Positions 8,493-60,100 of a stretch of 64,000 nt of DNA are shown here, one piece after another. The DNA is taken from assembly GCA_963719505.1 (NCBI GenBank), contig CAVRCF010000002.1, positions 373,323-437,322 on the forward strand, in the 5' to 3' direction. The notes beneath the pieces were generated by a model. The model was not told where the DNA came from and did not search any database. It saw only the letters and a program-made list of their open reading frames with translations. The translations under genes were made by a program, and so were the position numbers. This DNA is from Halobacteriovoraceae bacterium. Its GTDB lineage: Bacteria; Bdellovibrionota; Bacteriovoracia; Bacteriovoracales; Bacteriovoracaceae. Each line of letters begins with the position of its first letter. Positions within the stretch are counted from its first letter, which is position 1.

Positions 8493-8554
8493 AAGACTAT
8501 TCTATCTTTTAGGCGGAGAATTTACTCTTTCGTTGAAGAAGTTTCAATGGGGTG

Positions 8555-9863
8555 TATAAAGATTCGACAATTATGTCCTATCCTTATTTCCCAGCGAAAA
8601 TGTCCTACTTAACGCATTAATATTACAATACTCAGGTAATCAAACCTGAGGTGTTAAATGGGAAAAATAAGCATGGATGCTAAACAAATGAAGCTTTATA
8701 GACTCGCCTGTGAAGTCTTAGCCGGAAAAATTTCTATTAAAGAATTTTCCATCATATCTAAAAAGTCATATCGCCAGTCTCAACGTATTATTAAGAATGT
8801 TGAGACTCATGACTTCATAGGAGTCATACATAAAAATTCTGGTGTTGCTCCAGTAAATAAAACTTCTGAAAGACTAGAAGCTTTGATCGTAGATCTTCTA
8901 ACTTATAAGTATGTTGGATTTAATCTCACTCACTTTAACGAAATGTTAATTAAAAATGAAAACATTAAAATTTCAAAGTCTTCACTTCATCGAATTGCAA
9001 CTAAACACAATCTTGTAAAAGCTCCAAGAAGAGCGAAGAGAAGATCTTTCAAGCCTAGAGCCAGAGTCCCTCAAGAAGGTATGCTCGTGCAGTTCGATGG
9101 AAGCCATCACCCTTGGTTTGGTAATCACAAATCGGACTTAATTGCAGCAATCGACGATGCAACCGGAAAGATTTTAGCAGCAGAGTTTTTTTACGGAGAG
9201 AAGTCGATGCATTCGATGAAAGTTATCAAGGAAGTAATTGATAAAAATGGAATTCCAGAAGCCTTCTACATGGATCAAGCAGGGATTTATGGAAAGGTAG
9301 ATCGAGACTGGGAATCTCAGATCTCAAGAGCCTTTGATCAGGTTAATATTAACTTAATTCTTGCAAGCTCTCCACAAGCTAAAGGACGAGTAGAGCGTCT
9401 CTTTAGGACTCTACAAGATCGACTGGTAGCGGAGCTTTCGTTTTATAAAATAGAAACTTTGGAAGAGGCAAATGACTATTTGAGAACAACTTTTATAGAA
9501 GCTTTTAATAAGCAGTTCTCGGTAGAGTCGCAAAGCTTCGATACAGCTTACAGGAAAAATGTTTTTGGAAATTTAGACAGAGTTTTTTGTAAAAAAGAGA
9601 GAAGAAAAATTGGAGTTGGAAACGTATTTTCTTTCGAAGCAATTACTTGGTTGATAGACGAAAAGTTTTGCTATCGAGGTCGCGAAGTGAATATAAATAC
9701 CCATCTTGATGGCAGTCAGAGCTTTGATATTATGGGTAAAGAAATATATCCAATAGTGTTCAACACAAAGAGGATTTATGACTATAAAAAGCGAGCAATA
9801 TGACACACAAGGTAGGACATAATCGCTGGGATATTAACCGGACATAGTCGCTGGGATTCAACA
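8555..9863 (+). mobile_element. IS1202-family (ISNCY) insertion sequence, 1309 bp, 17-bp target duplication
   Basis: GAAGTTTCAATGGGGTG at 8538-8554 and 9864-9880. Each end carries two inverted ..ATGTCC repeats; right end ...CAACA. The left boundary could be 2 bp earlier (TGT). Confidence 0.85.
8658..9803 (+). CDS. ISNCY/IS1202-family DDE transposase
   Basis: N-terminal HTH; LVQFDGS.H.W, IDDATG, YMD and SPQAKGRVERLFRTLQDRL integrase-core motifs. Confidence 0.9.
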   Translation: MGKISMDAKQMKLYRLACEVLAGKISIKEFSIISKKSYRQSQRIIKNVETHDFIGVIHKNSGVAPVNKTSERLEALIVDLLTYKYVGFNLTHFNEMLIKNENIKISKSSLHRIATKHNLVKAPRRAKRRSFKPRARVPQEGMLVQFDGSHHPWFGNHKSDLIAAIDDATGKILAAEFFYGEKSMHSMKVIKEVIDKNGIPEAFYMDQAGIYGKVDRDWESQISRAFDQVNINLILASSPQAKGRVERLFRTLQDRLVAELSFYKIETLEEANDYLRTTFIEAFNKQFSVESQSFDTAYRKNVFGNLDRVFCKKERRKIGVGNVFSFEAITWLIDEKFCYRGREVNINTHLDGSQSFDIMGKEIYPIVFNTKRIYDYKKRAI

Positions 9864-9878
9864 GAAGTTTCAATGGGG

Positions 9879-9895
9879 TGTCTATTTTTTAGACA
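9879..9895. promoter_or_regulatory. Palindrome TGTCTA-TTTTT-TAGACA (IS target motif)
   Basis: Perfect 6-bp inverted repeat with 5-bp spacer, overlapping the end of the target duplication. Confidence 0.55.
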
Positions 9896-9897
9896 CT

Positions 9898-11097
9898 TTA
9901 CTTTTCACTGGGCTCGTAGCGATTTTCAACACTTGGCCTCACCCTTAGGCTTGCTAGAAAGGGGACTTGAAAAGTTAGGCTCAGTCTGTCTCGATGATCT
10001 ATTTGTTTTAGGGCCAGATCCCAGGGTGATGTAAAATCAATGGCTCTAGATGTTTTAATTCCCTTTCTAAAATGAAGTTCAAAGCTACTCTCTAGTTCTA
10101 AGCTGGCCAAGAAGATATCAAATTCGGTCCCAACTGATAGACCAAATCGAACCTCATTGAGCTTAAATAAACCCCTGTTTTGTTCTGCACGGTCTGCTGT
10201 TTTAAGAATGCTTAAAAATGGGATCGTTAACGAACTCATATTGAGTTTTTTAAGAATATCAGCTTTACGTGTCTTCGTATATTCTACTAAAAAACCCGAG
10301 CCTGCAGATAAGGAGGCAAATTTGATATCTCCGCTGATATTTAGATCAAAAGAGGCTCTTAGACGATAGAGGTTATAGCCGGTTTCCCTTTTAATTTCAT
10401 TTTCATCGACTTTGGAAATCTTTTTAAATAGTTTATCTACAAGCTCACTTTGTCTCGAGGATTCCTTCTCCTTTGAAGGTGTAATTTTAAATCTAAACCT
10501 AATTCTTTTGTCGTAGCCCACTTTTAAAAAATCTAATATTCCAAGATCAAAAGAGAAATAATAGTTTCTCCAAAAGCTATTTATCTGCCACCCATTGGGC
10601 GGGGTGATGGAGCTCATTGTTTTAGCAAAAGTACTTATTTTTTTGGCATCTTTGTGGAGAGTTTTTAAAATTTTTCTTCTCACTGACGGTTTTATTGAAT
10701 TCCAATCAACTTGAGATTTCAACTGCTCGACCAGATCCAATTTAAGTTTCTGTTGTTCATCCTGAGTTACGGATAGGGTTTTCATGGTCTTCGGAGTATC
10801 TGTTTCTTTTCTCCAAATGAACTCAACTGATTTTGAAAATCCAGTTGAGAAAATGCCAATGCCACCTTGGCCACTTATTCCAATAGAGGCATCAATCCGT
10901 TCAAGGTTGTCGTATTTTCTATTTGCCTTGTCGATAATCCCCTCGTAAGCCTTAATGATAGACTCGATTTTCTCAGGGGCATAGACTTGAGAATCCTCTT
11001 TTAATAAGGTCTTTTTTCCAATCCAAGATAAAGGAATATCTTGGGCGTGAAGACAAAAAGAAAAGGCGAGGAGACTTAAAATGAAGAGATTTTTCAT
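9898..11097 (-). CDS. Secreted protein with about five amphipathic beta-hairpin repeats
   Basis: Signal peptide; repeated ~35-aa units such as LFKLNEVRFGLSVGTEFDIFLASLELESSFELHFRK. Confidence 0.6.
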   Translation of the reverse strand: MKNLFILSLLAFSFCLHAQDIPLSWIGKKTLLKEDSQVYAPEKIESIIKAYEGIIDKANRKYDNLERIDASIGISGQGGIGIFSTGFSKSVEFIWRKETDTPKTMKTLSVTQDEQQKLKLDLVEQLKSQVDWNSIKPSVRRKILKTLHKDAKKISTFAKTMSSITPPNGWQINSFWRNYYFSFDLGILDFLKVGYDKRIRFRFKITPSKEKESSRQSELVDKLFKKISKVDENEIKRETGYNLYRLRASFDLNISGDIKFASLSAGSGFLVEYTKTRKADILKKLNMSSLTIPFLSILKTADRAEQNRGLFKLNEVRFGLSVGTEFDIFLASLELESSFELHFRKGIKTSRAIDFTSPWDLALKQIDHRDRLSLTFQVPFLASLRVRPSVENRYEPSEK

Positions 11098-11491: not shown

Positions 11492-12433
11492 TTAAACGAG
11501 CTCTTCAACCTCTTTGAAATACTTAAATGTTGTACCGATGTTTGAGGCTATTTTAATATGTTCTTGGGAGTCCATTTTAGTGGTCCACCAAGACTTTCTT
11601 ATGAGAATTTGATCAACAAGGTTTGGGTGGAGTTTAGATATTTCCAAATAAATTTCAGGATCTCTTTGGCCTTCATCACCGATGAGAATCAATTGACCTT
11701 TGTTAACGAGCTTCGAGATCTCTATAAGGTAGTCAAACTTTTGATGATGAGACTTTTTTGACTTTTGTTTGTCTCTTGTATTTTGAAGAAGGATTGGTCC
11801 GTTTGGAAAATCAAATTCAAGAATAAAATCTTTAATCATAGGATAGAGATCCCATGTCGAGCTTGAGACGTATATGATTTTATTTCCTGCTCTTTCTAAA
11901 TTCTGATAAAATTCACTCGCTCCTTCAAAGGAGCTTCTTTTTTTTAAAGGTCTAAATAGAGTTCTCAGTATTAACTTGGTAAGATTGGTCGCTTGAGATT
12001 TTAAAATAGTATCATCGAGATCACTCACAACAAGTTTCGAATCTCGACTCAGAAAATCAATAGGTATGTCTTTGTAGTTCTCATGCCCTTTTATTTTAAA
12101 TTTTAAAACTTTTGATTGGGTTTCTACTTGTAGAGTCTTTTCAATAAATCCTCTTTTTGATGTTTTAAGAATGTGTTTTCTTCCATCAATGAGAAGCTCT
12201 ACCTCTGTTCTTTTCGAACTTCTCGACAAAAAGAGTCGAATAACTTTGAGGATATGGGATGGATGTGAATCCTTTTTAGAGAATTTGATATCGGAATTTG
12301 ATCTTACGATTCTAAGCCTCAAAAAAAGATTTTCACCATTGCTAATACAGGCGTATGTAAGAACCCTTTTAGGTTCTTTTCCTTTGAAGATAGACAAAGT
12401 CTCTCTTAAAAAATGGAGTGCATGATTAAGCAT
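11492..12433 (-). CDS. App1-family phosphatidate phosphatase (DUF2183, HAD-like)
   Basis: VVSDLDDTI, YVSSSTW.LY, FPNGP and LIGDEGQRDPEIY motifs. Confidence 0.8.
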   Translation of the reverse strand: MLNHALHFLRETLSIFKGKEPKRVLTYACISNGENLFLRLRIVRSNSDIKFSKKDSHPSHILKVIRLFLSRSSKRTEVELLIDGRKHILKTSKRGFIEKTLQVETQSKVLKFKIKGHENYKDIPIDFLSRDSKLVVSDLDDTILKSQATNLTKLILRTLFRPLKKRSSFEGASEFYQNLERAGNKIIYVSSSTWDLYPMIKDFILEFDFPNGPILLQNTRDKQKSKKSHHQKFDYLIEISKLVNKGQLILIGDEGQRDPEIYLEISKLHPNLVDQILIRKSWWTTKMDSQEHIKIASNIGTTFKYFKEVEELV

Positions 12434-12692
12434 TTTTACCTCTTTGTTGATTTGTCTTTTCTATCTTAACAAATACAGAGAGATATACCTTGTATTGATT
12501 TGCATCAGATGTGTATTTTTTTTCAATAAATACAATATATTTCTATGACGAGGTGCAAGCTATGAAAGTTGACTTTTCTACTGTCTTTTCTCTTCAAAGA
12601 AACAATAAGTTGTAGTGTTTTGTGTTGAATTATTCACAGTACCTTCATGGATTTATGAGATAAAAGGTAAATACCTCCCGTATTATTATTAC

Positions 12693-12818
12693 AAGAGGAA
12701 GAGATCACATCTCTAAACCAGTCTAAGGACTAAACGGCCCGCCTCAAGTAGCTAAAAAATTTTAGCTACATTATCTAAAAAAAGTATTTATCAATACATT
12801 CTAGAATCTCTTCCTCTT
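12693..12818. ncRNA. Putative structured ncRNA, copy 1 (126 nt)
   Basis: 13-bp perfect terminal stem AAGAGGAAGAGAT/ATCTCTTCCTCTT and internal hairpins; no ORF; TATTAT 6 nt upstream on the + strand. Confidence 0.5.
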
Positions 12819-12979
12819 AAGCTTTTTAAAGTTTAAATCTATCGCGCTAGTAGGTGAGTCTTTAGGTCGATTTTGAATAAATTTGGTTTCAATGACTTGT
12901 ATATTTTTGTGTTTAATATTGCACAGAACCTTCATGGATTTATGAGATAAATTGTAAGCACCTCACGTACTATTATTAC

Positions 12980-13105
12980 AAGAGGAAGAGATCACATCTC
13001 TAAACCAGTCTAAGGACTAAATGCCCCACCTCAAGTAGCTAAAAAATTTTAGCTACATTATCTAAAAAAAGTATTTATCAATACATTCTAGAATCTCTTC
13101 CTCTT
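12980..13105. ncRNA. Putative structured ncRNA, copy 2 (126 nt)
   Basis: Three substitutions relative to copy 1; TACTAT 6 nt upstream on the + strand. Confidence 0.5.
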
Positions 13106-13111
13106 AAGCTT

Positions 13112-13567
13112 TTACCAAGAGCCAATATTTTCCATGCTCTGCCATGGCTCGCATATTTTAAGAGAATCACCTTTTTGAAGCAGTTCTATAGAGATACCAT
13201 CAGGAGATTTGATAAAGGCCATGTGTCCATCTCTTGGAGGTCTATTGAGAATAACACCTTGATCCATCAGGTTCTTGCAAAATTCATAAATATTATCTAC
13301 TCTGTAGGCAAGATGACCAAAGTTTCTTCCACCTTGATAGTCCTCAGTGTCACCATTTTCATCAGGCCAGTTATAGGTTAGCTCGAGAAGGGGAGATTTA
13401 CTTGTTTGAGCTTTTTCAAAATTTTCATCATCTGACAGAAAGATCAATGTAAAACGTCCTCTTTCATTCTCTGATCGACTGACTTCTTTGAGGCCAAGCT
13501 TATCACAGTAAAAGTCCAAACTTTTTGTTAGGTTTTTAATTCTTATCATCGTGTGAAGATATTGCAT
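13112..13567 (-). CDS. gloA: Lactoylglutathione lyase (glyoxalase I, VOC family)
   Basis: YLHTMIR, LELTYNW, GRNFGHLAY and RPPRDGHMAF.SPD.ISIELLQ. Confidence 0.9.
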   Translation of the reverse strand: MQYLHTMIRIKNLTKSLDFYCDKLGLKEVSRSENERGRFTLIFLSDDENFEKAQTSKSPLLELTYNWPDENGDTEDYQGGRNFGHLAYRVDNIYEFCKNLMDQGVILNRPPRDGHMAFIKSPDGISIELLQKGDSLKICEPWQSMENIGSW

Positions 13568-13575
13568 GAGAACTC

Positions 13576-14304
13576 CTATAAGTTTTTATATAAAATAAAG
13601 GATCCCATAATAATAAGAAAAATAGCAAATATCTTTTTTAATTTTGCTTGTGGAACTTTTGTATTAAGGATGGCACCTAGGAAAATACCAATAGTTGAGC
13701 AGATTGAAAAAAGGATCATGAGCTTCCAAGGTATATCGACTCTGCCAAGATAGGATAGGAAGCCAAAAATAGAATTAAAGCTAATAATGAAAAGTGATGT
13801 TCCCACAGCTTTTCTCATATCTATTCCGGTAAAGAACATAAGTGCCGGAACGATTAAGAACCCCCCCCCAACGCCGATAATTCCTGTCATGACTCCAACA
13901 AAAATGCCCGATACTGAGATGAGTGGGTAGTTGAGACCTCTGGGGTGGTCATCTATTTCAGCTCTTCCTCGAAACATAAATACTGCGGCAATTATCATAA
14001 TGGCAGAAAAAATGAGAAGTTGTATCTGACCGGTTAAAAATTGACTTAGATAAGATCCAAGATAGGTTCCAGGTACGGCGAACCCTCCAAAGATAAAAGC
14101 AATTTTAAAACTTATGTTTTTATTTTTAAAGTGACCGTACATGCCCATTAAAGCTGTCCAACCAACAATCGCTAAGCTCATTGCAACGGAGACTTTAGGG
14201 TCTACATTAAAGATGTAGACAAGAATGGGGACGGTGAGAATAGATCCACCTCCACCAAGAAGGCCCATTGCCAAACCAGCAAATAAAGCTAAAGCATATC
14301 CCAT
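13576..14304 (-). CDS. TauE/SafE sulfite exporter family permease
   Basis: GLLGGGGSILTVP, GVGGGFLIVPAL and AVGTSL; polytopic membrane protein. Confidence 0.9.
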   Translation of the reverse strand: MGYALALFAGLAMGLLGGGGSILTVPILVYIFNVDPKVSVAMSLAIVGWTALMGMYGHFKNKNISFKIAFIFGGFAVPGTYLGSYLSQFLTGQIQLLIFSAIMIIAAVFMFRGRAEIDDHPRGLNYPLISVSGIFVGVMTGIIGVGGGFLIVPALMFFTGIDMRKAVGTSLFIISFNSIFGFLSYLGRVDIPWKLMILFSICSTIGIFLGAILNTKVPQAKLKKIFAIFLIIMGSFILYKNL

Positions 14305-14353
14305 AATCTTATTCCTTTTCTTTCTATACTAGCTTTTAACCAGCGGCATGTAA

Positions 14354-14367
14354 TTGATAGAGATCAA
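14354..14367. promoter_or_regulatory. Perfect FNR-type box TTGAT-AGAG-ATCAA upstream of the TauE gene
   Basis: Matches TTGAT-N4-ATCAA about 50 bp upstream of the start at 14304. Confidence 0.7.
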
Positions 14368-14972
14368 TGACCAAAGTTTTTTAAGTCTTCTTCACTCAAA
14401 ATATCTATGGATCTTCCATTCTTCTCAATAATCTTGGCTTTTTCTAGTTTTGATATAACTCTTGCCACTGACTCTGGGGTTGTCGATGCGAAATCAGCGA
14501 TGTCTTTACCTTTCCATTTAATTTCGGGATCTTTAATTTTCAAAAAAAGTAAGGCTTCGGCCACTCTCTTAGTTACTGTTTTATCCTGGACTGATGCTAA
14601 ACGAATTTCAGTTTGCGCCAAGTCCCTTGCCAAGGTTTTCATAATCGTTTTTAAAATTTCTGGGCTTTCAGAGCAAAGTTGATCACATGCCTCTTTTGAA
14701 ATGACTTTCACTTTTATATCTGTGAGAGCAAAAGCTGTAGCGTGATGGGGCTCTTGTGCAAAAAAAGAGCGATGACCCATATGATCATTTTCTTTGAAGA
14801 TTCTGAGAAATGTGCTCTTTCCATTTTCTGTATTATAAGAGAGTCCAACAACACCATCAAGGAGATAGTAGACATGGTCTGGAGCATCACCCTCATGGTA
14901 AACAAAAGCGCCTTTAGTTAATACTTTTACTGGAAGAGATGTATCTAACTTGACGATATTACTTAGACTCAA
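14364..14972 (-). CDS. Crp/Fnr-family transcriptional regulator
   Basis: cNMP-binding fold (VYHEGD..HVYYLLDG) and HTH DIADFASTTPESVARVISKL. Confidence 0.9.
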   Translation of the reverse strand: MSLSNIVKLDTSLPVKVLTKGAFVYHEGDAPDHVYYLLDGVVGLSYNTENGKSTFLRIFKENDHMGHRSFFAQEPHHATAFALTDIKVKVISKEACDQLCSESPEILKTIMKTLARDLAQTEIRLASVQDKTVTKRVAEALLFLKIKDPEIKWKGKDIADFASTTPESVARVISKLEKAKIIEKNGRSIDILSEEDLKNFGH

Positions 14973-14992
14973 GTGTTAATCCTTTTACAAAA

Positions 14993-15006
14993 TTGATAGA
15001 GAACAA
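14993..15006. promoter_or_regulatory. FNR-type box TTGAT-AGAG-AACAA in the divergent promoter
   Basis: One mismatch to consensus; same spacer as the box at 14354. Confidence 0.6.
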
Positions 15007-15065
15007 TGTTTTAAATTTGATATTAATATATGATACTGAATGAAAGGACTATTAGGAAATATATT

Positions 15066-15944
15066 ATGACTTTAAAAGTACAACATTTTTTCGACGAAAA
15101 GACTAAAACATTAAGTTATATCGTTTATGATGAAAAGACGTCAGACTGCGTCCTTATTGATCCCGTTTTAGATTATGATCAAGCCTCCTCAAAGATTTCA
15201 AATGAATCAATAAAGGCGGTTAAAAGTTTTATAGCAAAGAAGTCTCTAAAGGTGCATTATATTTTAGAGACTCATGCTCATGCGGATCACCTCTCAGGAG
15301 CTCAGGAATTATTAGAATCTTTTGATCATGCAAAGCTTGTGATTGGAAAAAACATCACAAAGGTTCAAGAAGTTTTTTCTAAAATATACAATTTAAAAAA
15401 CCTAAACCTCAAAGGTGAACAGTTCGATATCTTAGTCGATGAAGACTCTGTTTTGAAAGCCGGAAGCTTTGAGATTAATGTCATCGAAACTCCTGGGCAT
15501 ACGCCAGCTTGCGTCTCTTATCATATAGAAAACCATCTCTTCACAGGAGATGCTCTTTTTATGCCTGACTATGGAACGGGAAGGTGTGACTTTCCAGCAG
15601 GAAGTGCAAAAGACCTTTACCATTCAATACACGAAAAGCTTTATAAACTACCAGATGAAACACAGTTCTACACCTGTCACGATTATCAACCCAACGGAAG
15701 ACAGATGATATACACATCTTCAATCGGTGAGAGTAAAGCTCGTAATATTCAGTTGAAAGACTCTACAACACGTAGTGAGTACATAGAGTTCAGAGAGAAA
15801 AGAGATGCCACTTTGAGCGCACCAACTCTTTTACTTCCAAGTATACAAATAAATATTGATGGAGGCCGTCTTCCCAAAGAAGAAGACAACGGCACCTCTT
15901 ATATAAAAATACCTTTAAACAGAGAGGACGAATATGAACGGTGA
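15066..15944 (+). CDS. Persulfide dioxygenase (ETHE1/Blh-like MBL-fold)
   Basis: IDPVLDYD, ETHAHADH, TPGHTPAC, FMPDYGTGRCDFP and CHDY. Start placed at ATG 15066 (AGGA RBS). Confidence 0.9.
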   Translation: MTLKVQHFFDEKTKTLSYIVYDEKTSDCVLIDPVLDYDQASSKISNESIKAVKSFIAKKSLKVHYILETHAHADHLSGAQELLESFDHAKLVIGKNITKVQEVFSKIYNLKNLNLKGEQFDILVDEDSVLKAGSFEINVIETPGHTPACVSYHIENHLFTGDALFMPDYGTGRCDFPAGSAKDLYHSIHEKLYKLPDETQFYTCHDYQPNGRQMIYTSSIGESKARNIQLKDSTTRSEYIEFREKRDATLSAPTLLLPSIQINIDGGRLPKEEDNGTSYIKIPLNREDEYER

Positions 15945-16353
15945 AATATTATTTCCTCTTATTGGAGGCATTTTAATTGGGTTGGCAGCTAGCCTTGTTC
16001 TTGTCGGTTTAGGAAAAATCACAGGTATAAGTGGTATTTTAGCATCAGCCGTTTTTAATCCAACTCTTAAAGAAAATGTCTGGAAGATTGTTTTTGTCTG
16101 TGGCTTGATTCTTGGTGGACTTTTAATGAGAAGGTTTTATCCCGAACTTTTTAACTATTCCATTTCAACCAATATTCCTCTTGTTATTGCGGCAGGTTTG
16201 TTGGTTGGATTCGGCACCAGGCTTGGAAGTGGATGCACCTCTGGGCACGGGGTTTGCGGTTTACCAAGACTGTCAAAAAGATCCTTAGTCGCGACCCTCA
16301 CTTTCATGGGGAGCGGAATTATAACTGTTCTGATTAAAGGAGCTCTTTCATGA
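15934..16353 (+). CDS. YeeE/YedE sulfur-compound transporter subunit
   Basis: GISG and GTRLGSGCTSGHGVCG..RLS.RS. Confidence 0.9.
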   Translation: MNGEILFPLIGGILIGLAASLVLVGLGKITGISGILASAVFNPTLKENVWKIVFVCGLILGGLLMRRFYPELFNYSISTNIPLVIAAGLLVGFGTRLGSGCTSGHGVCGLPRLSKRSLVATLTFMGSGIITVLIKGALS

Positions 16354-16751
16354 AAAATGTTCTGAGTTTATTTGCAGGGATGATATTTGCCATAGGTCTT
16401 GTCGTATCAGGAATGACAAATCCCGCAAGAGTCATCGGTTTTTTAGATATTTTTGGGCAGTGGGATTATTCCTTGGCCTTTGTCATGGGTGGAGCTGTTG
16501 TTGTTAACTTGGTTCTTTTTCGATGGATTTTAAAAAGAGATCCCATTTTTAATGGTAAACATGATCTTCCGACAAATAAGCTTATCGATAAAAAACTAAT
16601 TATTGGATCAACTTTATTTGGTGTCGGTTGGGGACTTGTTGGAATTTGTCCAGGTCCAAGTATCGTTAATCTCGTCACTGGAAACGTCAGCGCAATCATC
16701 TTTTTTCTCGCAATGATTGCTGGTTTTTTCTTAGAAAAAAAGCTTAATTAA
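16350..16751 (+). CDS. YeeE/YedE-family partner subunit
   Basis: SGMTNP..VIGFLD..G.WD.SL and FGVGWGL.G.CPGP. Confidence 0.9.
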   Translation: MKNVLSLFAGMIFAIGLVVSGMTNPARVIGFLDIFGQWDYSLAFVMGGAVVVNLVLFRWILKRDPIFNGKHDLPTNKLIDKKLIIGSTLFGVGWGLVGICPGPSIVNLVTGNVSAIIFFLAMIAGFFLEKKLN

Positions 16752-22427: not shown

Positions 22428-22515
22428 ATTATGTCCTATCCTTATTTCTCAGCGATTATGTCCTATTCAATAATATTTATGTACCCTGATTCCAATCAGT
22501 TATTAGGGGAATTGA

Positions 22516-23679
22516 ATGGGAAAAGTCACTATGTCACAAAAAGAATTGAAGCAGTATCGCCTGGCCATGGATGTTATTGAAGGTAAGTTAACTATAATTT
22601 CCTTCTCTGAACAGATTGGAAAATCGTATCGACAATCTCAGAGAATTATCAATAAAGTTAAGGCCAAGGGTTCGATTGGTGTCTTACATGGAAACATTAA
22701 TCGAACTCCTCACAATAAAACTCCATTCGAAGTTGAAGAAAAAATAGTCTCTCTTCTAAAAAATCAATATCGAAACTTTAATCTAACTCATTTTCGAGAA
22801 AAGATAGAAGAGTATGAGGAAATTAAAATCAAAAAAGATGCACTTCACTCAATTGCTAGGAAACATTGCCTTGTAAAACATCCTAAACGAAGAGGAAGAC
22901 GGTGCCATAAACCAAGAGCAAGACTTCCAAAAGAAGGGATGATGATTCAGTTTGATGGAAGTGATCATACTTGGTTCGGTGATGAAAGAACTGATTTGAT
23001 TGGAGGAATTGATGATGCTACCGGGATTGTTGTTGGTGCTGAATTTTTCTATGGAGAGACGTCAAATAACTCTCTGAAGGTGATTAGGGAGATCGTTGAT
23101 AACTATGGATTGCCAGAAAGTTTCTATATGGACCAAGCAGGTATTTATGGTAAGAAAGAGCGCGAGTGGGAATCACAAATTTCGAGAGCATTTGATCAAA
23201 CAGGAATTCAATTAATCTTAGCAGGTTCTTCTCAAGCAAAGGGAAGAATAGAGAGACTCTGGAGAACATTCCAAGACAGACTGGTAGCGGAGTTAGAATT
23301 TAATCACATAACAAATATTGAAGAAGCCAATTATTACTTAAAAGAGATTTTTATTCCTGCATACAATTTTCAATTCTCAGTCAAAGCCGAAGAAGAAGAA
23401 GAAAAAGCCTGGAGAAAAAATGTTTTTGGAGACCTAGATATTATATTTTGTAAAAAGATTAGGCGAAAAATTATGGTTGGAAATGTATTTAGTTGGGAGA
23501 ATGTGACTTGGGTGTTGGATGAAAAAAGGTGTTTCTATGGACGAGAAATCAATATAAATATTCACCTTGATGGAAGCTACAGCTTCGATGTGATGGGCAG
23601 AAAAGTTCAATGTAAAGTTAGTAATAGGAAAAGATTAAGTGACTATGGTGATAAGTCGAAACACAGAAAAAGCGCTTAA
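22516..23679 (+). CDS. ISNCY/IS1202-family DDE transposase
   Basis: QFDGS.H.W, IDDATG, FYMDQAG and SQAKGRIERLWRTFQDRL; a diverged homolog of 8658-9803. Confidence 0.9.
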   Translation: MGKVTMSQKELKQYRLAMDVIEGKLTIISFSEQIGKSYRQSQRIINKVKAKGSIGVLHGNINRTPHNKTPFEVEEKIVSLLKNQYRNFNLTHFREKIEEYEEIKIKKDALHSIARKHCLVKHPKRRGRRCHKPRARLPKEGMMIQFDGSDHTWFGDERTDLIGGIDDATGIVVGAEFFYGETSNNSLKVIREIVDNYGLPESFYMDQAGIYGKKEREWESQISRAFDQTGIQLILAGSSQAKGRIERLWRTFQDRLVAELEFNHITNIEEANYYLKEIFIPAYNFQFSVKAEEEEEKAWRKNVFGDLDIIFCKKIRRKIMVGNVFSWENVTWVLDEKRCFYGREININIHLDGSYSFDVMGRKVQCKVSNRKRLSDYGDKSKHRKSA

Positions 23680-23751
23680 AGTCTGATAGGACATAATCGC
23701 TCAGAAATTAACCGGACATAATTGCCCAGAAACAACAAATTTTTTAGGAGC

Positions 23752-23768
23752 TGTCTAAAGTTTAGACG
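23752..23768. promoter_or_regulatory. Palindrome TGTCTA-AAGTT-TAGACG (IS target motif)
   Basis: Same motif and same position relative to the target duplication as 9879-9895. Confidence 0.55.
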
Positions 23769-24600
23769 ATTCTAAGCAGTTGGGATCTATATCATCTCTT
23801 TTTTCAAAGCCGCTTTTATCTTTCTTTAATTGGTGAGAGTTTTCCCAGCTAAGACAGCTTATAGCTTTAGAGCGATCTGTATCAGATGGGCCTAAATTTC
23901 TAGGGACATCTTGGGTTTTAAAGAGGCATGTTTCAAAAATCATCGAGGCAATCTTAGTTGTCTTTGAGGTTTTACCAGCATGAGTGCCATGTGAGATTAA
24001 GTTTTCACTGTATCGACTTCCTGTGGGCATATCGGAAAAGTGAATAATCGGTTTAATGATCTCAGGTGAAAAGAAAAGGTATTCATCATTATCATCGATT
24101 TCAGTAAACAAAAGGGAAATTGTTTCATCTCGCTTAACCTTATATAAACCATGACGATCATTTTGTTCGCTGTATGATGCGTAAATTGGATCGTCATCGA
24201 AAGAATCAATAACAAGATCTTCATGCCTGAAATTTATTTTTTTACCAAAAAAATCTCTACGAGTTCCCGATTTACGAATGGTCTCCGGTTCATCGTCTTT
24301 TTGATTTTTTTCATAGATACAGCCTTTTATGTACTGAACGACTGCATACTTCTTTATCACATCTTTGGATGTCACTTCGTACTTTCCTTCAAGGAAGGTT
24401 GTCGCGTAATGAATGGGAGTTGATGAGATGGTGGTATCTGTTTCAAAATCTTTAAAGATTGTTATGGAGAAGCTCTTTAAATCACATGAGTTCGTGACTG
24501 AGCAGTCTTTATTAATAAATGACTTCGTTTCTTGCTCCATCGCTCCAGCAGAAAAAAGGGCGAGAAAGCTTAAAAAGATCAGTATAAAGTAATTTGTCAT
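23755..24600 (-). CDS. Secreted hypothetical protein
   Basis: Signal peptide and several Cys; no recognised family. Confidence 0.6.
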   Translation of the reverse strand: MTNYFILIFLSFLALFSAGAMEQETKSFINKDCSVTNSCDLKSFSITIFKDFETDTTISSTPIHYATTFLEGKYEVTSKDVIKKYAVVQYIKGCIYEKNQKDDEPETIRKSGTRRDFFGKKINFRHEDLVIDSFDDDPIYASYSEQNDRHGLYKVKRDETISLLFTEIDDNDEYLFFSPEIIKPIIHFSDMPTGSRYSENLISHGTHAGKTSKTTKIASMIFETCLFKTQDVPRNLGPSDTDRSKAISCLSWENSHQLKKDKSGFEKRDDIDPNCLESSKL

Positions 24601-25118: not shown

Positions 25119-25319
25119 AATGGTCTCCTTGATAAGTTGGTTTAATAATGGAATGGGCATCACAAGTTTTCTATATAAAATTTCTTTGTTGACTAGATGT
25201 CTATTGGCGAGGTGCCCAAAAATCTGAAATTTAGCCATAAACAGCTTAAATGTGTACAGATCTACACTTTTAAAGGGATAATTTTTGATAGAATCTGGAA
25301 AATTATTAAAGGGGTAAGT

Positions 25320-27990
25320 ATGAAAAGTTTAAATACTTTTAAAAGTAAAAAGAAAATTGAAGTTAGTGGTAAAAGTTATCAAATCTTCAGTTTAAAGCAA
25401 GCAGAAGAAAATGGTTTAAAAGACATCTCAAAGCTTCCAAAGTCACTTAAAGTCCTCACTGAAAATCTTTTAAGAAAAGAAGATGAAAAAACGGTAACGA
25501 AATCCGATATAACGGCCATGACGAGTTGGCTGGTAGATAAGAAGTCTAAAACAGAAATAAGCTTTTATCCTTCTCGAGTGATGATGCAAGATTTTACAGG
25601 TGTTCCTGCGGTCGTGGATCTAGCGGCAATGAGAGATGCCATGAAGAATCTAGGGGGAGATCCTCAGAAGATTAATCCTCAAGTTCCCGTTGACCTTGTC
25701 ATTGATCATTCGGTTATGGTTGATAGCTATGGAGATAAAGATTCATTTCAACAAAATGTCGTTTTAGAATTTGAAAGAAATAAAGAGCGGTACGAGTTTT
25801 TAAAATGGGGACAAAATGCCTTTGAAAACTTTAAAGTTGTTCCTCCTGGCACAGGTATCATTCATCAAGTCAATTTAGAGTACACAGGTCAAGTTGTTTG
25901 GACCAAAGATGAAGACGGGGAGGAACTCGCTTATTGCGACTCCCTTGTTGGTACAGATTCTCATACGACAATGATTAACGGTCTTTCTATTCTAGGTTGG
26001 GGAGTCGGTGGTATTGAAGCCGAGGCTGCCATGCTTGGGCAAGCTATAACAATGCTTATTCCTGAAGTTGTAGGATTTAAAATATCGGGAAGACTTACCG
26101 AAGGAACAACGGCTACGGATCTGGTTTTAAGAGTTGTCGAAATGTTAAGACAAAAAAATGTTGTCGGAAAATTTGTTGAATTCTATGGTGACGGCCTTGC
26201 CAACTTAAGTCTTGCCGATAGAGCAACGATAGCAAATATGGCCCCAGAGTACGGTGCGACCATGGGATTTTTCCCCATCGATGAAGAGACTATTCGTTAT
26301 TTAAAATTCACCAACAGAGATCCTCAAAGAGTTGCTCTTGTAGAAGCTTATGCAAAAGAGCAAGGCCTTTGGAGAAATAATGGAGATGAGCCTACATTTA
26401 CCGACTAGTTTAGAATTAGACATGGCCACAGTGGAAGCATCAATTGCAGGACCAAAAAGACCTCAGGATAGAGTTCTTTTAAGTAGTGCCGCTGAAAAAT
26501 TTAGTCATGATTTAGAAAAAACTTTTAAAGTCAAAGATATGAATGCAAAAGTACAAGTTGAAGGCGAAGACTTCTCAATGACTCAAGGTGATGTTGTCAT
26601 AGCGGCGATTACAAGTTGCACCAACACATCGAATCCAAGTGTTATGATTGGTGCTGGCCTCCTCGCTAAAAAAGCGAGAAAACTTGGTTTGACAGTTAAG
26701 CCTTGGGTTAAAACATCATTAGCTCCAGGATCAAAAGTTGTGACAGACTACCTTGTTGAAAGTGGACTGCAAGAGGACTTAGATGCACTGGGCTTTAACT
26801 TAGTTGGGTATGGATGTACGACATGTATTGGAAACTCAGGACCTTTACTTCCAAAGTTTTCCCAGGCAATTCAAAAAGGTGATCTTGTGGTCAACGTCTG
26901 TTCTATCGGGAAATAGAAATTTTGAAGGACGAATCTCTCCAGATGTTAAAGCTAACTATCTCGCTTCACCTCCTTTGGTTGTGGCTTATGCCTTAGCTGG
27001 AAGTATGAAAATAGATATTACTAAAGATGCTCTTGGCAAAGACAAAGATGGTAATGATGTTTTTCTAAAAGACGTGTGGCCAACAGATTTAGAGATAAAA
27101 GAGACGGTGGCCAAAGCCTTAACTCCTGAAATGTTTCAAGCTCGTTATTCGAAATGTCTTTGAGGGAACCAAAGAGTGGCAAGACATAAAGACGAGTAAC
27201 AGGACAAACTTATCAGTGGAATGAGAAGTCTACTTATATTCAAAACCCTCCATTTTTTGAAGGGATGAAAGCATCAGAAGAAAAAGTTAATGACATTCAC
27301 GATGCTAAAGTTGTGGCCATCCTTGCTGACTCGACAACGACAGATCATATTTCGCCTGCTGGAAATATAGCGGCATCCTCTCCCGCTGGGATGTTTCTAA
27401 AAGAAAATGGTGTTGAGCCAAAAGACTTTAACTCTTACGGCTCGAGAAGAGGGAACGATAAAGTCATGACCCGAGGAACCTTTGCCAATATTAGAATTAA
27501 AAATGAAATGCTCGATGGAGTTGAAGGTGGCTACACTTTATTTGATGGCAAGCAGATGTCTATTTACGATGCAGCGATGAAACATAAAGAAAAAGGTAAC
27601 GACTTAGTTGTTGTTGCTGGTAAAGAATATGGTACCGGCTCTTCGAGAGATTGGGCTGCAAAAGGGACAAGACTTCAGGGTATTAGTGCCGTCATCGTTG
27701 AAAGCTTTGAGAGAATCCATAGATCAAACCTCATTGGTATGGGTGTTCTTCCTTTAGAATTCACTAATGGGCAAAGTAGGAAAACTCTAAAACTAGATGG
27801 ATCGGAGAGTTTTAGCATTTCAGGTCTGTCTTCTATGAAGCCTGGGGAGTTAGTCGATTGTAAAATTGAGTTTGCTAATGGTAAATCAGAAACGGTAAAA
27901 CTCAAGTCTAGAATCGATACACAAACGGAACTCGAGTATTATAAAAATGGTGGAATACTTCACTACATGCTTAGAAACTTTATTAAGTAA
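25320..27990 (+). CDS. acnA: Aconitate hydratase A, split by about four frameshifts (likely sequencing errors)
   Basis: Consecutive ORFs carry [58 protein letters not shown] and [13 protein letters not shown]. Confidence 0.9.
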
Positions 27991-57133: not shown

Positions 57134-60100
57134 AAACTTCACCATTTAAAGCTTTCTTCCAAATTACTTCAAATTAGATTTTCTTCTGGAAATTTTTCTA
57201 GTTTTCCAAGAACATGAGATCCAGTCTCAAAGTTAGCGTTAAATAATCGACTAAATTCATTTTGGTGAGCTTCATTAAAAAAAAGATACTTTAAATCTTT
57301 ATCAACTGCGGCAATAAAATCGGATGAGCTTTCAAGGACATTAGAAAATCTCTGTTTATTTAAAATATCTGTTGTCACCTCATTGCAGCTAACAATCACC
57401 CCAAAATAGAACCCTGCAAACTCTTTAGTGGTGAAAAGCTAAAACTGAGATCAGTTAATTCGACCATCCCCATTTCTTGGCATCATAGCACTTTCATTCT
57501 CTATCCACGTTTTCCGCCGGAAAAAACTTGCTCAAAATAATGACCAGTGGTCGAATCCCAAAGCTGCCCCATACTTCTTTTCCTGAAAGTCCCATTTTTT
57601 CACTATGATTTCCCTCTCCGAGGTAGCTTAAAAAACTATCGTTAAAAAAGAAATAGGCTTCTTTGCTAAATCCTCGTGTGGATTGACTTAATCAACTCGA
57701 GAGGTGAACTTTAGCTCAACGGCCGACCCATGAGGCTGCCCTAAAGGATGCTTTTTCCAATTCTTATCACGAATAAATTTTGCTGTTTTTGAATTGTTTA
57801 AAAAGTCCATACCCGCCCCTATGCTTCTCGTTTAAATATAGCATTAGAAAGGTATTCAACAGGCAGTGGCCTATCAAACTCTTTGTGTAGAAAAAAACAC
57901 ATCTCCTTTAACAACCCTTAGGATGCTAAGAGGCCTACTTTGTCAATTAATGGCAAAACGATATTTCTTTTCCTTTCTTTCATTTGTGTCGAGATTTATT
58001 TACAAATTCTCTACTTTTCCCCAAGATTTTTTTTTGATAATTTTATCAGGAGGTTTTTATGACTATAAAATATAATAATGAAAAAGAGAACGAAGAAATC
58101 CAATCAATCTTCACAACATGTCTCGAGGAGGGATCAAAAGAGAACTTCTCGAAAAAGCGATTTGGAGATAAGGATCAAGAAAAGATTGAGTCCATTGCCG
58201 GTGAGCAAGGTGTATCCAGTGGAGACACTTTGACAAGTTACGGGACAGCAGAGGATCGTTCAAAAAATGTCGAACGCCTACAAAGAAGTTCAACCAAATG
58301 AATGGCATGAAGAAAGAAGATCCCAGTAAAACCACTCTGACTCAAACGATGAATCACAATAATAGAAAACAACGAATAGAAAAACAACATAAGCCAAGAG
58401 ATAATACTTGATACGAGGACAAGGAGGTCGTTGTGAAAAGTGAAGTAAAAGATGAAATCCTAGAAAACAAATTTGGGGTTTTATTAGATAGAAAGACTAC
58501 GTTTGCGATTGAAAGAGAATTAGAACATTTAATGGACGGATGTTCCCTCAGTCGGCAAGCGCCTTCTTCAACTTAAGATAAAAGGGCATTGCTTCTTACC
58601 AATCAAAACTATTGATAAACTGCTTTGATATAGTTTTTCAAGTTGAAGCCGAGTAAGGATCCGCTGACAGTATTTAAACTTCTTGAACGAAAAATGGATG
58701 AAGCTTTTGCACTTGGAGAAAAGACATTCCTTATACCAAACTTTTCAGAAGATACCATGACTCTCTCATAGATAATCTGGGGCCCGTAAAGCCTCCAGCT
58801 TTTATTCAAATCAACCACTTTGAAGCATGACAAGTGTGCAAGCATTTAAGAACCTCAACACCCAATTTGTGAGGCGAGATGAGGATTCTCTGTGCCGGGA
58901 TTAAATATGACTCGGCGACACCTTATTTTTAATGTCTTCAAAAAGTGAACTCTGCTTTGAGGGGCTAATATAAACTGTGATCAATGTCGGATGGTATATG
59001 TTCAAAGCTTGAATAGACCTCAAAACCATCAATCTTCTTTTGATTAGATTAGGCTAAAAAAACAGTTATAGCCGTTATCCTTTAAACTTACTTGTGCCTG
59101 ATGGAAAACCTTTTTGGATCGCTCGAAGCTCCTATGATGGCTACGTATGTTATTCTTCATAGTGATTCAAGATTTGATATTCCAGAGAGAGTTTTAATAA
59201 TAGAATGCACTACATTCGCATCCTTTTCATAGAAGTAAGGAGGATAACTATCTTTGATAAGATATTTAAGCGCTTTTCCTTCTTGATCATATTCTGCGCA
59301 TAAATGACGACCACATGACTTTCAAACCAGTATCCAATTGGTGTCTTTTAATCCAATCAGTTTTTTATGATTCTTCGTCTGATCGGGATACAAAATAAGC
59401 TTGGATTTCCAGGCCTTGTAGGATCGGGATGAGCACTCCAGGCCTGAGATTTTATCATCGCGTAGACCAAAACTCAGTCCACTAAAGAACTTTTCTCTAA
59501 GGAAAAAGGACTAGTTTTTCACCTAAAAATATTGTCTGAGTTATATGACCTGAGTCTGACCCAGTAATCAGCGTCGCTAACTAAACCTATTTCTCTAGAA
59601 TGAAAATTTGGCCTGAGTTTTTGTCAGAGCCAGTTGACTCTTTAAAGTACCAGCGAAAAGATTTATTTCCTTAGGGTCCACTTGTGGATGACTTTCAAGA
59701 AATATACTCTCTACAATTGTAAGAGTTGAGAACACCCAACAAAACTGAGAGTCTTTTTGATCAAGCGCTCCTGTAACTCTGAGGCTAATAACTTCGTTTT
59801 GTGCAAAAGCCAGGTTCGCTGTCAAAAAACAGGTGGTAAAAATTAGAATGAATAACTTCTTCATAGCACCTTTAAGCTACCGTTAATAACACGACCATCA
59901 TACATACTTACGAGCCTTTTGGCCGTGTTTTATTCTTCACATTTACCTTTTAGAGGACTCCAAAACGACAAATTTTTTGTTTTGACCTATTTTAGACACA
60001 TTGCCAAAAATCTTTTTAGGGAAATATGGTACCCAAGTGATTATTGCCAAATAACTCTAAGCTTCCCTCCAGCCTTGAGAGCTCGCTTAGCATCCCTAAA

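Follow-up and report, generated by a model that had tools for sequence, protein, structure and literature searches.

The DNA examined, hereafter the window, is a 64,000-nt stretch from a Halobacteriovoraceae bacterium, and it holds two closely similar elements within one 678-nt intergenic spacer (12434-13111). The genes on both sides are encoded on the minus strand and include: (i) on the left, an APP1-like phosphatidate phosphatase of 313 aa (11492-12433; PF09949, E = 8.8e-38), and (ii) on the right, a glyoxalase I (lactoylglutathione lyase-like) of 151 aa (13112-13567). Adjoining the elements is a sulfur-handling cluster (13576-16751) of a TauE-like exporter, a Crp/Fnr-type regulator, a Blh-like sulfur transferase/dioxygenase and two YeeE/YedE-like membrane proteins; the gene of the Crp-family regulator is 1.3 kb from the elements. 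ISNCY transposase genes at 8658-9803 and 22516-23679 bracket the locus, which is an accessory region. The ISNCY-family insertion sequences of the window (8552-9899 and approximately 22428-23770) are of different subfamilies, are about 66% identical and belong to types with five near-identical and about eight copies in the genome, respectively. Relatives of the APP1-like gene are not found in 40 relatives, and 95 pattern matches to it in metagenome contigs yielded no confirmed case. Same-genus homologues of the glyoxalase share 52-55% identity with it and reside in a different gene context, with no such element downstream. The genome has a G+C content of 36.8% and is 83.5% complete in five contigs. 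Farther along the window, the gene for aconitase apparently occupies three consecutive ORFs (25197-26408, 26350-26916 and 27265-27990), which suggests frameshifts, a pseudogene or indel errors of the assembly; the split may also partly account for the completeness value of this five-contig genome. The window also includes a region of about 2.8 kb (57134-59918) with short frames only, none of 90 aa or more, and no Rfam match.

The elements are part of a larger duplicated unit. A repeat search finds one direct-repeat family, a 224-nt unit present twice on the plus strand (unit A, 12603-12826; unit B, 12890-13113) with 92% identity and a start-to-start spacing of 287 nt. Each unit is composed of a 90-nt left flank, a 126-nt core (core A, 12693-12818; core B, 12980-13105) and a kept 8-nt tail, AAGCTTTT (12819-12826 and 13106-13113), with the last two bases of unit B overlapping the glyoxalase stop codon on the opposite strand. 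The 63-nt spacer between the units (12827-12889) resembles neither outer flank (shuffle P = 0.75 and 0.15); thus, a simple 287-nt tandem duplication is rejected, and the repeat is instead a 224-nt module with sharp ends. As the flanks and the spacer differ between copies, the pair is also not an assembly duplicate. Both copies have TATTAC at the left and AAGCTT at the right, and no target-site duplication is present, in agreement with an earlier note on this DNA that was made from the sequence alone.

The two units have diverged unevenly. Of the 90 nt of left flank, 16 are changed between the copies, compared to 3 of the 126 nt of core (Fisher p = 1.1e-4), and the better conservation of the core reported in the earlier note is thus upheld. 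The selection that the note read from this contrast is less secure, as the identity of the core extends to 61 of the 64 unpaired bases and fits recent gene conversion equally well. Gene conversion is central to an alternative, slightly less probable than the interpretation preferred below, in which the elements are a palindromic DNA module without RNA function, left over from a horizontally acquired or formerly mobile segment, duplicated locally and homogenised in the core. A core that is almost identical, linkers included, and an accessory location flanked by ISNCY transposase genes, among neighbour genes without synteny in relatives, are consistent with such a history. Gene conversion does not explain, however, why the identical tract is the structural unit, nor does it explain a separate, perfectly kept block of 24 nt in the diverged flank (12641-12664; copy B, 12928-12951), which lies 29 to 52 nt upstream of the core (P = 0.029 for 24 identical bases in a row, given 16 differences in 81 nt of flank). 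The flank, moreover, retains 82% identity where the spacer is fully diverged, which suggests that the flank is also under constraint.

The cores are predicted to fold into a multi-branched structure of four helices. Alignment confirms the coordinates and sequences of the two 126-nt cores first described in the note, which are identical at 123 of 126 positions and differ only at 12735, 12737 and 12741 (CGGCCCG versus TGCCCCA). In core A, the closing helix P1 (12693-12705/12806-12818) encloses P2 (12720-12723/12728-12731), P3 (12748-12757/12760-12769) and P4 (12784-12788/12793-12797), and core B has the same four helices. The arms of the 13-bp closing stem are 100% complementary and 100 nt apart in each copy by inverted-repeat search, and the internal hairpins AGTC-TAAG-GACT, a 10-bp hairpin with an AA loop and GTATT-TATC-AATAC all read back exactly as the note had given them. 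Perfect 13-bp inverted repeats with a spacing of 60-140 nt occur at 17 loci in the genome, and such a repeat is by itself not rare; the unusual part is the nesting of three further perfect hairpins inside the 13-bp stem. The same genome-wide count brought up, outside the window, a long perfect inverted repeat on contig C4 (21981-22125), with arms of at least about 40 nt that are about 60 nt apart. The alternative hairpin AGAGAT-CAC-ATCTCT (12700-12714; copy B, 12987-13001), which would compete with P1, also reads back exactly. The conformational switch that the note considered possible has this 6-bp hairpin as its sole basis.

The stems are built of Watson-Crick pairs throughout (32 of 32, with no G-U pair) and, thus, both strands can fold, a property that the DNA-level module readily accommodates. 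The plus strand has a predicted fold of -35.5 kcal/mol (z = -6.5) and the minus strand a predicted fold of -41.7 kcal/mol (z = -4.6), with none of 200 shuffles as stable in either case. The earlier note held that extra G-U pairs favour the minus strand, which stands with regard to energy but not with regard to the shape of the fold. In the plus-strand models, the two copies share one four-helix shape (mean pairing probability per helix 0.82-0.97), which bears out the multi-branch fold of the note, and the variable patch between P2 and P3 is exposed (12735-12741 in copy A, mean unpaired probability 0.74; 13022-13028 in copy B, 0.92). By contrast, P2 pairs with a probability of just 0.29 and 0.12 in the minus-strand models, where the patch has an unpaired probability of no more than 0.34 and local pairing is predicted to vary from copy to copy. 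As the minus-strand fold is copy-dependent and buries the patch, the plus strand is favoured, albeit weakly and from modelled structures.

Three random substitutions would cluster inside 7 nt with a probability of 0.006, and all three fall at unpaired positions (chance P = 0.13). The end bases of the patch switch jointly between the copies (C..G to T..A), which could reflect compensation on a small scale or mere chance. Both versions are small quasi-palindromes as read from the sequence. If the elements are a DNA-level module, this feature would agree with an origin of the 3-nt change in one recent clustered mutation, such as a template switch in a quasi-palindrome. If the elements instead encode RNAs, the patch would be an exposed segment in which the siblings diverge.

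Coding potential and several known classes of repeated element were considered. The note reported no ORF, which holds in that no frame is kept in both copies, although short frames do occur. These include a 44-aa minus-strand frame of copy B (12801-12935), of which copy A retains just four codons, and small plus-strand frames in which the differences between copies are all non-synonymous. The note had named a match to a miniature element (MITE) among the results that would speak against its reading. Terminal inverted repeats of 13 nt (100% complementary) are indeed present, but there is no target-site duplication and, by searches of the genome itself, just two adjacent copies; derivation from the nearby ISNCY element is also rejected, as the 13-mer has no resemblance to the ends of that element. 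The low copy number, the missing target-site duplication and the unrelated insertion-sequence ends likewise weigh against a formerly mobile palindromic module. The elements are similar to MITE/ERIC-like units in size (about 126 bp, compared to about 127 bp for ERIC), inverted-repeat ends, large palindromic fold and intergenic location, yet differ in being two adjacent copies that were duplicated with 90 nt of flank and have no family elsewhere.

Integron attC sites and their integrase-less clusters share with the elements a repeated imperfect palindrome of about 120-130 nt that lies directly downstream of a small accessory gene in one orientation. The attC consensus includes R''/R' boxes (RYYYAAC ... 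GTTRRRY) with an unpaired spacer and extrahelical bases. The elements have none of these features; they end in AAGAGG.../...CCTCTT, are closed by a perfect 13-bp stem, were duplicated together with their flank, and are found in a window with no integrase, so that the assignment to attC is rejected. A retron is rejected, as the window ORFs that were scanned include no reverse transcriptase and the 313-aa neighbour encodes a phosphatase. Tandem direct repeats that encode an sRNA are also typical of type I toxin-antitoxin systems such as Sib/Ibs and Ldr/Rdl of E. coli, which the elements resemble in being direct repeats, set in tandem between genes and measuring a few hundred bases. By contrast to these systems, neither strand of the elements has a small hydrophobic ORF common to the two copies, and this class is rejected as well.

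Relatives of the elements were sought widely. Rfam 15 gives no match for the whole window at gathering thresholds, a check that the note had proposed, and in sensitive mode (12300-13300, E up to 10) gives four chance matches to snoRNA models (15.5-19.2 bits compared to thresholds of 43-80). ARAGORN finds no tRNA or tmRNA gene in the window, and the putative RNA of the note still matches no recognised family. Searches of the genome itself recover two copies only, whether by blastn (word size 7) and a second sequence search, by nhmmer --max (next best E = 0.48) or by a covariance model (next best 23 bits). In 236 other genomes of the family, blastn gives no match at E <= 1e-4, and among 200 of these, 18 have mere A+T-rich fragments of 20-49 nt (E >= 3.7e-4). 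The covariance model built from the two cores has its best match in 150 family genomes at 29.2 bits (E = 0.0036), inside an ORF, and in three same-genus genomes at 24.1 bits, across two ORFs; both are rejected as chance. No conserved counterpart, and hence no covariation, was seen in related genomes by blastn or the covariance model, the kinds of search that the note had proposed. A 14-nt match to P3 on contig C5, within a period-27 repeat, is also rejected as chance, as it falls in a lysine/alanine-rich protein repeat. The corresponding gene (C5:288400-288850, outside the window) encodes a histone H1-like protein with repeats of about nine residues (..KKVAKKATKK..).

Collections beyond the family are similarly negative. 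An exact 22-mer of the elements is not found in viral contigs, the pattern P2-patch(N7)-P3 is not found in genome and metagenome contig collections, and plasmid and phage collections have no match. Closing arms separated by a gap of 85-115 nt were sought in collections that include 185,579 species genomes, and the six genome loci and one viral locus recovered have unrelated interiors; two of these, from Prochlorococcus, resemble each other only. The lack of a homologue in the family genomes and collections searched is what would be expected of a local palindromic duplicate and argues against a conserved RNA, while the recovery of unrelated chance matches alone in the closing-arm scan also goes against a once-mobile module.

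Signals for transcription are suggestive on the plus strand. Moving toward the core, the left flank has the kept 24-nt block, then six changes in 19 nt, and from 12684 onward no further difference, through a TATTAT box and into the core, an order that reads like a plus-strand promoter region. The 24-nt block is a candidate promoter or regulator site, and it has no other site at up to four mismatches. The -10-like sequence, TATTATTAT in copy A (12681-12689) and TACTATTAT in copy B (12968-12976), lies 4 to 12 nt upstream of the core. The note took a -10-like hexamer to favour the plus strand; the box is indeed present upstream of both cores, but it is below the threshold of a consensus scan. A sigma-70 consensus scan of both strands finds no promoter for the elements, and relaxed scanning of the plus strand gives a best match of 8/12 (GAGATA-18-TATTAT) in copy A and 7/12 in copy B. 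Motifs of the ECF-like and sigma-54 types gave no convincing site. The FliA consensus, TTAAG-N16-CCGATA (PMC3627812), also gave no convincing site. The right end of the repeat falls exactly at a T-run past P1, within the kept tail, which is a possible U-tract for termination after P1; at a distance of 4 nt from P1, a helix with 100 nt inside it, the run is non-canonical as an intrinsic terminator. A terminator scan of the plus strand finds no terminator-like site at the elements. The lack of consensus promoters and terminators counts in favour of DNA without RNA function.

Features of the minus strand point to a second, unlikely alternative, in which the elements are structures in the mRNA of a neighbouring gene. 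They would act either as a 3' UTR stabiliser or terminator of a glyoxalase-TauE-Crp operon or as a tandem riboswitch-like leader upstream of the APP1-like gene. Both neighbours are encoded on the minus strand, core B begins 6 nt past the glyoxalase stop codon in minus-strand reading, and the minus strand has the more stable fold. A terminator scan of this strand finds a hairpin with a T-rich tail (12698 to 12674) that overlaps the P1 arm (the 3' arm in minus sense) and, in the leader version, this arm would alternate between P1 and the downstream hairpin with its U-rich tail. Relaxed scanning also detects a 9/12 promoter-like match inside the core of both copies. By contrast, the terminator-like hairpin is degraded in copy B, where it has gained a U-U mismatch and lost most of the tail U residues. 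The disfavoured P2 and the copy-dependent pairing of the patch further count against an RNA of this strand, as do the lack of any Rfam riboswitch or leader match, the missing relatives of the APP1-like gene in the 40 relatives and the metagenome scan, and the same-genus glyoxalase gene with no such element downstream.

A function in double-stranded DNA is highly improbable. Here the elements would be a palindromic operator array for a protein such as the nearby Crp/Fnr-type regulator, or the 100-bp segment would be inverted by a site-specific recombinase acting at the 13-bp repeats. The perfect palindromes of the elements include GTATT-N4-AATAC and a 22-bp palindrome, the former having the GTA-N8-TAC form of NtcA-type sites, and a Crp-family regulator gene is close by. 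This operator idea leans on a consensus form and on palindromes so short that chance often produces them, and it leaves the nested closing stem unexplained. Inversion is suggested by the perfect 13-bp inverted repeats that flank 100 bp; however, no recombinase gene is found in the 64-kb window, and the segment has no above-threshold promoter-like site, only the relaxed minus-strand match.

The interpretation preferred here, tentatively and with a likelihood short of even, is that the two units are paralogous sRNA genes of the plus strand (sibling sRNAs), each encoding an RNA of about 130 nt. Two highly similar non-coding paralogues occur in one genome, which is one of the traits of sibling trans-acting sRNAs. 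The contrast in divergence between core (3/126) and flank (16/90), with three clustered changes that are all at unpaired positions, is consistent with selection on a structured transcript. The modelled folds also point to this strand, in that the plus-strand z score of -6.5 surpasses that of -4.6 for the minus strand and the helices have pairing probabilities of 0.82-0.97 where P2 falls to 0.29 and 0.12 on the opposite strand. The promoter-like pattern of the flank, the end of the repeat at a T-run and the lack of a conserved ORF likewise suggest independent non-coding genes, for which the 678-nt spacer is roomy enough. Tandem siblings that keep their ends and diverge in an inner segment are also an established pattern, as with OmrA/OmrB and PrrF1/PrrF2 (PMC4211561). 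Against sibling sRNAs are the lack of a consensus sigma-70 promoter on the plus strand, the non-canonical terminator, and stems without G-U pairs joined by near-identical linkers, which suit a recently formed or homogenised palindrome of DNA better than an RNA long under selection. The lack of a homologue in three same-genus genomes, 236 family genomes or large collections also argues against this reading, as does Hfq, which is not found in the 83.5%-complete genome; CsrA is present. Thus, of the duplicated small-RNA genes put forward in the note, the non-coding nature, the lack of an Rfam family, the kept core and the plus-strand fold are retained, while relatives, a consensus promoter and a canonical terminator are not found. 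The sibling-sRNA interpretation is plausible but unproven, with the DNA-level module and, after it, the minus-strand mRNA element not far behind in probability, and the pair appears to be an orphan.

If the elements are sibling sRNAs, each copy would be controlled by its own upstream region, formed of the kept 24-nt block and a -10-like box (TAYTAT/TATTAT). The starts would lie at or close to 12693 and 12980, roughly where P1 begins, and the RNA would end at the kept AAGCUUUU tail that directly follows the 13-bp terminal helix. While the RNA is being made, its 5' arm may first pair with the nearby AUCUCU and then be displaced from it by the distal 13-nt arm, to give a mature four-helix scaffold in which P1 closes P2, P3 and P4. 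The base-pairing seed is proposed to be the C-rich single-stranded linker, which reads AAA, then CGGCCCG or UGCCCCA, then CCUCAAG. The kept CCUC would pair in trans with GAGG-type ribosome-binding sites, while the differing 7-nt patch may direct each sibling to partly different targets.

Predicted targets do not stand out. Seed duplex energies computed against 3,517 crude translation-start regions have minima within the range of shuffled seeds, and a 13-mer scan for seed complementarity finds nothing above shuffled seeds. A minus-strand duplex match of -30.2 kcal/mol, a value without shuffle control, is in a coding region whose start is uncertain. The sRNAs RsaE/RoxS, LhrC and CcsR pair with ribosome-binding sites through seeds that are C-rich and single-stranded. 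Similarly to these sRNAs, the elements have a C-rich CCUC stretch, predicted to be unpaired, between hairpins in an A+T-rich genome (36.8% G+C). Differences include one C-rich stretch per element RNA, no enrichment of targets and no homology.

Tandem sibling sRNAs are the closest parallel. OmrA/OmrB of E. coli are tandem siblings with kept ends and a divergent middle, PrrF1/PrrF2 are also tandem, and the promoter regions of siblings differ from each other (PMC4211561). Like these pairs of E. coli and P. aeruginosa and like AbcR1/AbcR2 of Agrobacterium, the elements are two similar non-coding units set head to tail in one intergenic region with their own upstream regions and, like OmrA/OmrB, they keep their ends and diverge in an inner segment. 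Unlike known tandem siblings, the elements have no sequence or Rfam relation to other sRNAs, no canonical terminator hairpin and no orthologues in the genomes searched, and no Hfq is found in their genome. The putative RNA of the elements would also be distinct in being closed by an end-to-end helix of 13 bp. It is very unlikely that these differences mark a new class of structured RNA with the two elements as its sole members so far; such a class would have a rigid four-helix scaffold with an end-to-end closing helix and a hypervariable C-rich loop as exchangeable specificity determinant, each copy being aimed at its own target, and would have arisen on or been acquired by the accessory island of a predatory bacterium.

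A full-text literature search finds no described regulatory RNA for the marine predatory bacteria of this group, with a transcriptome study of Bdellovibrio bacteriovorus as the sole related match. If the elements are a homogenised palindromic duplicate, they are a small example of perfect multi-hairpin DNA that persists in an accessory region and a caution against inferring function from structure and duplication. If the sRNA reading is true, the elements add to an already known kind, the sibling sRNAs, as a pair without known relatives. Verified as such, the pair would offer a first way into the post-transcriptional control of this lineage and be a clean case of siblings that differ in a 7-nt seed patch alone.
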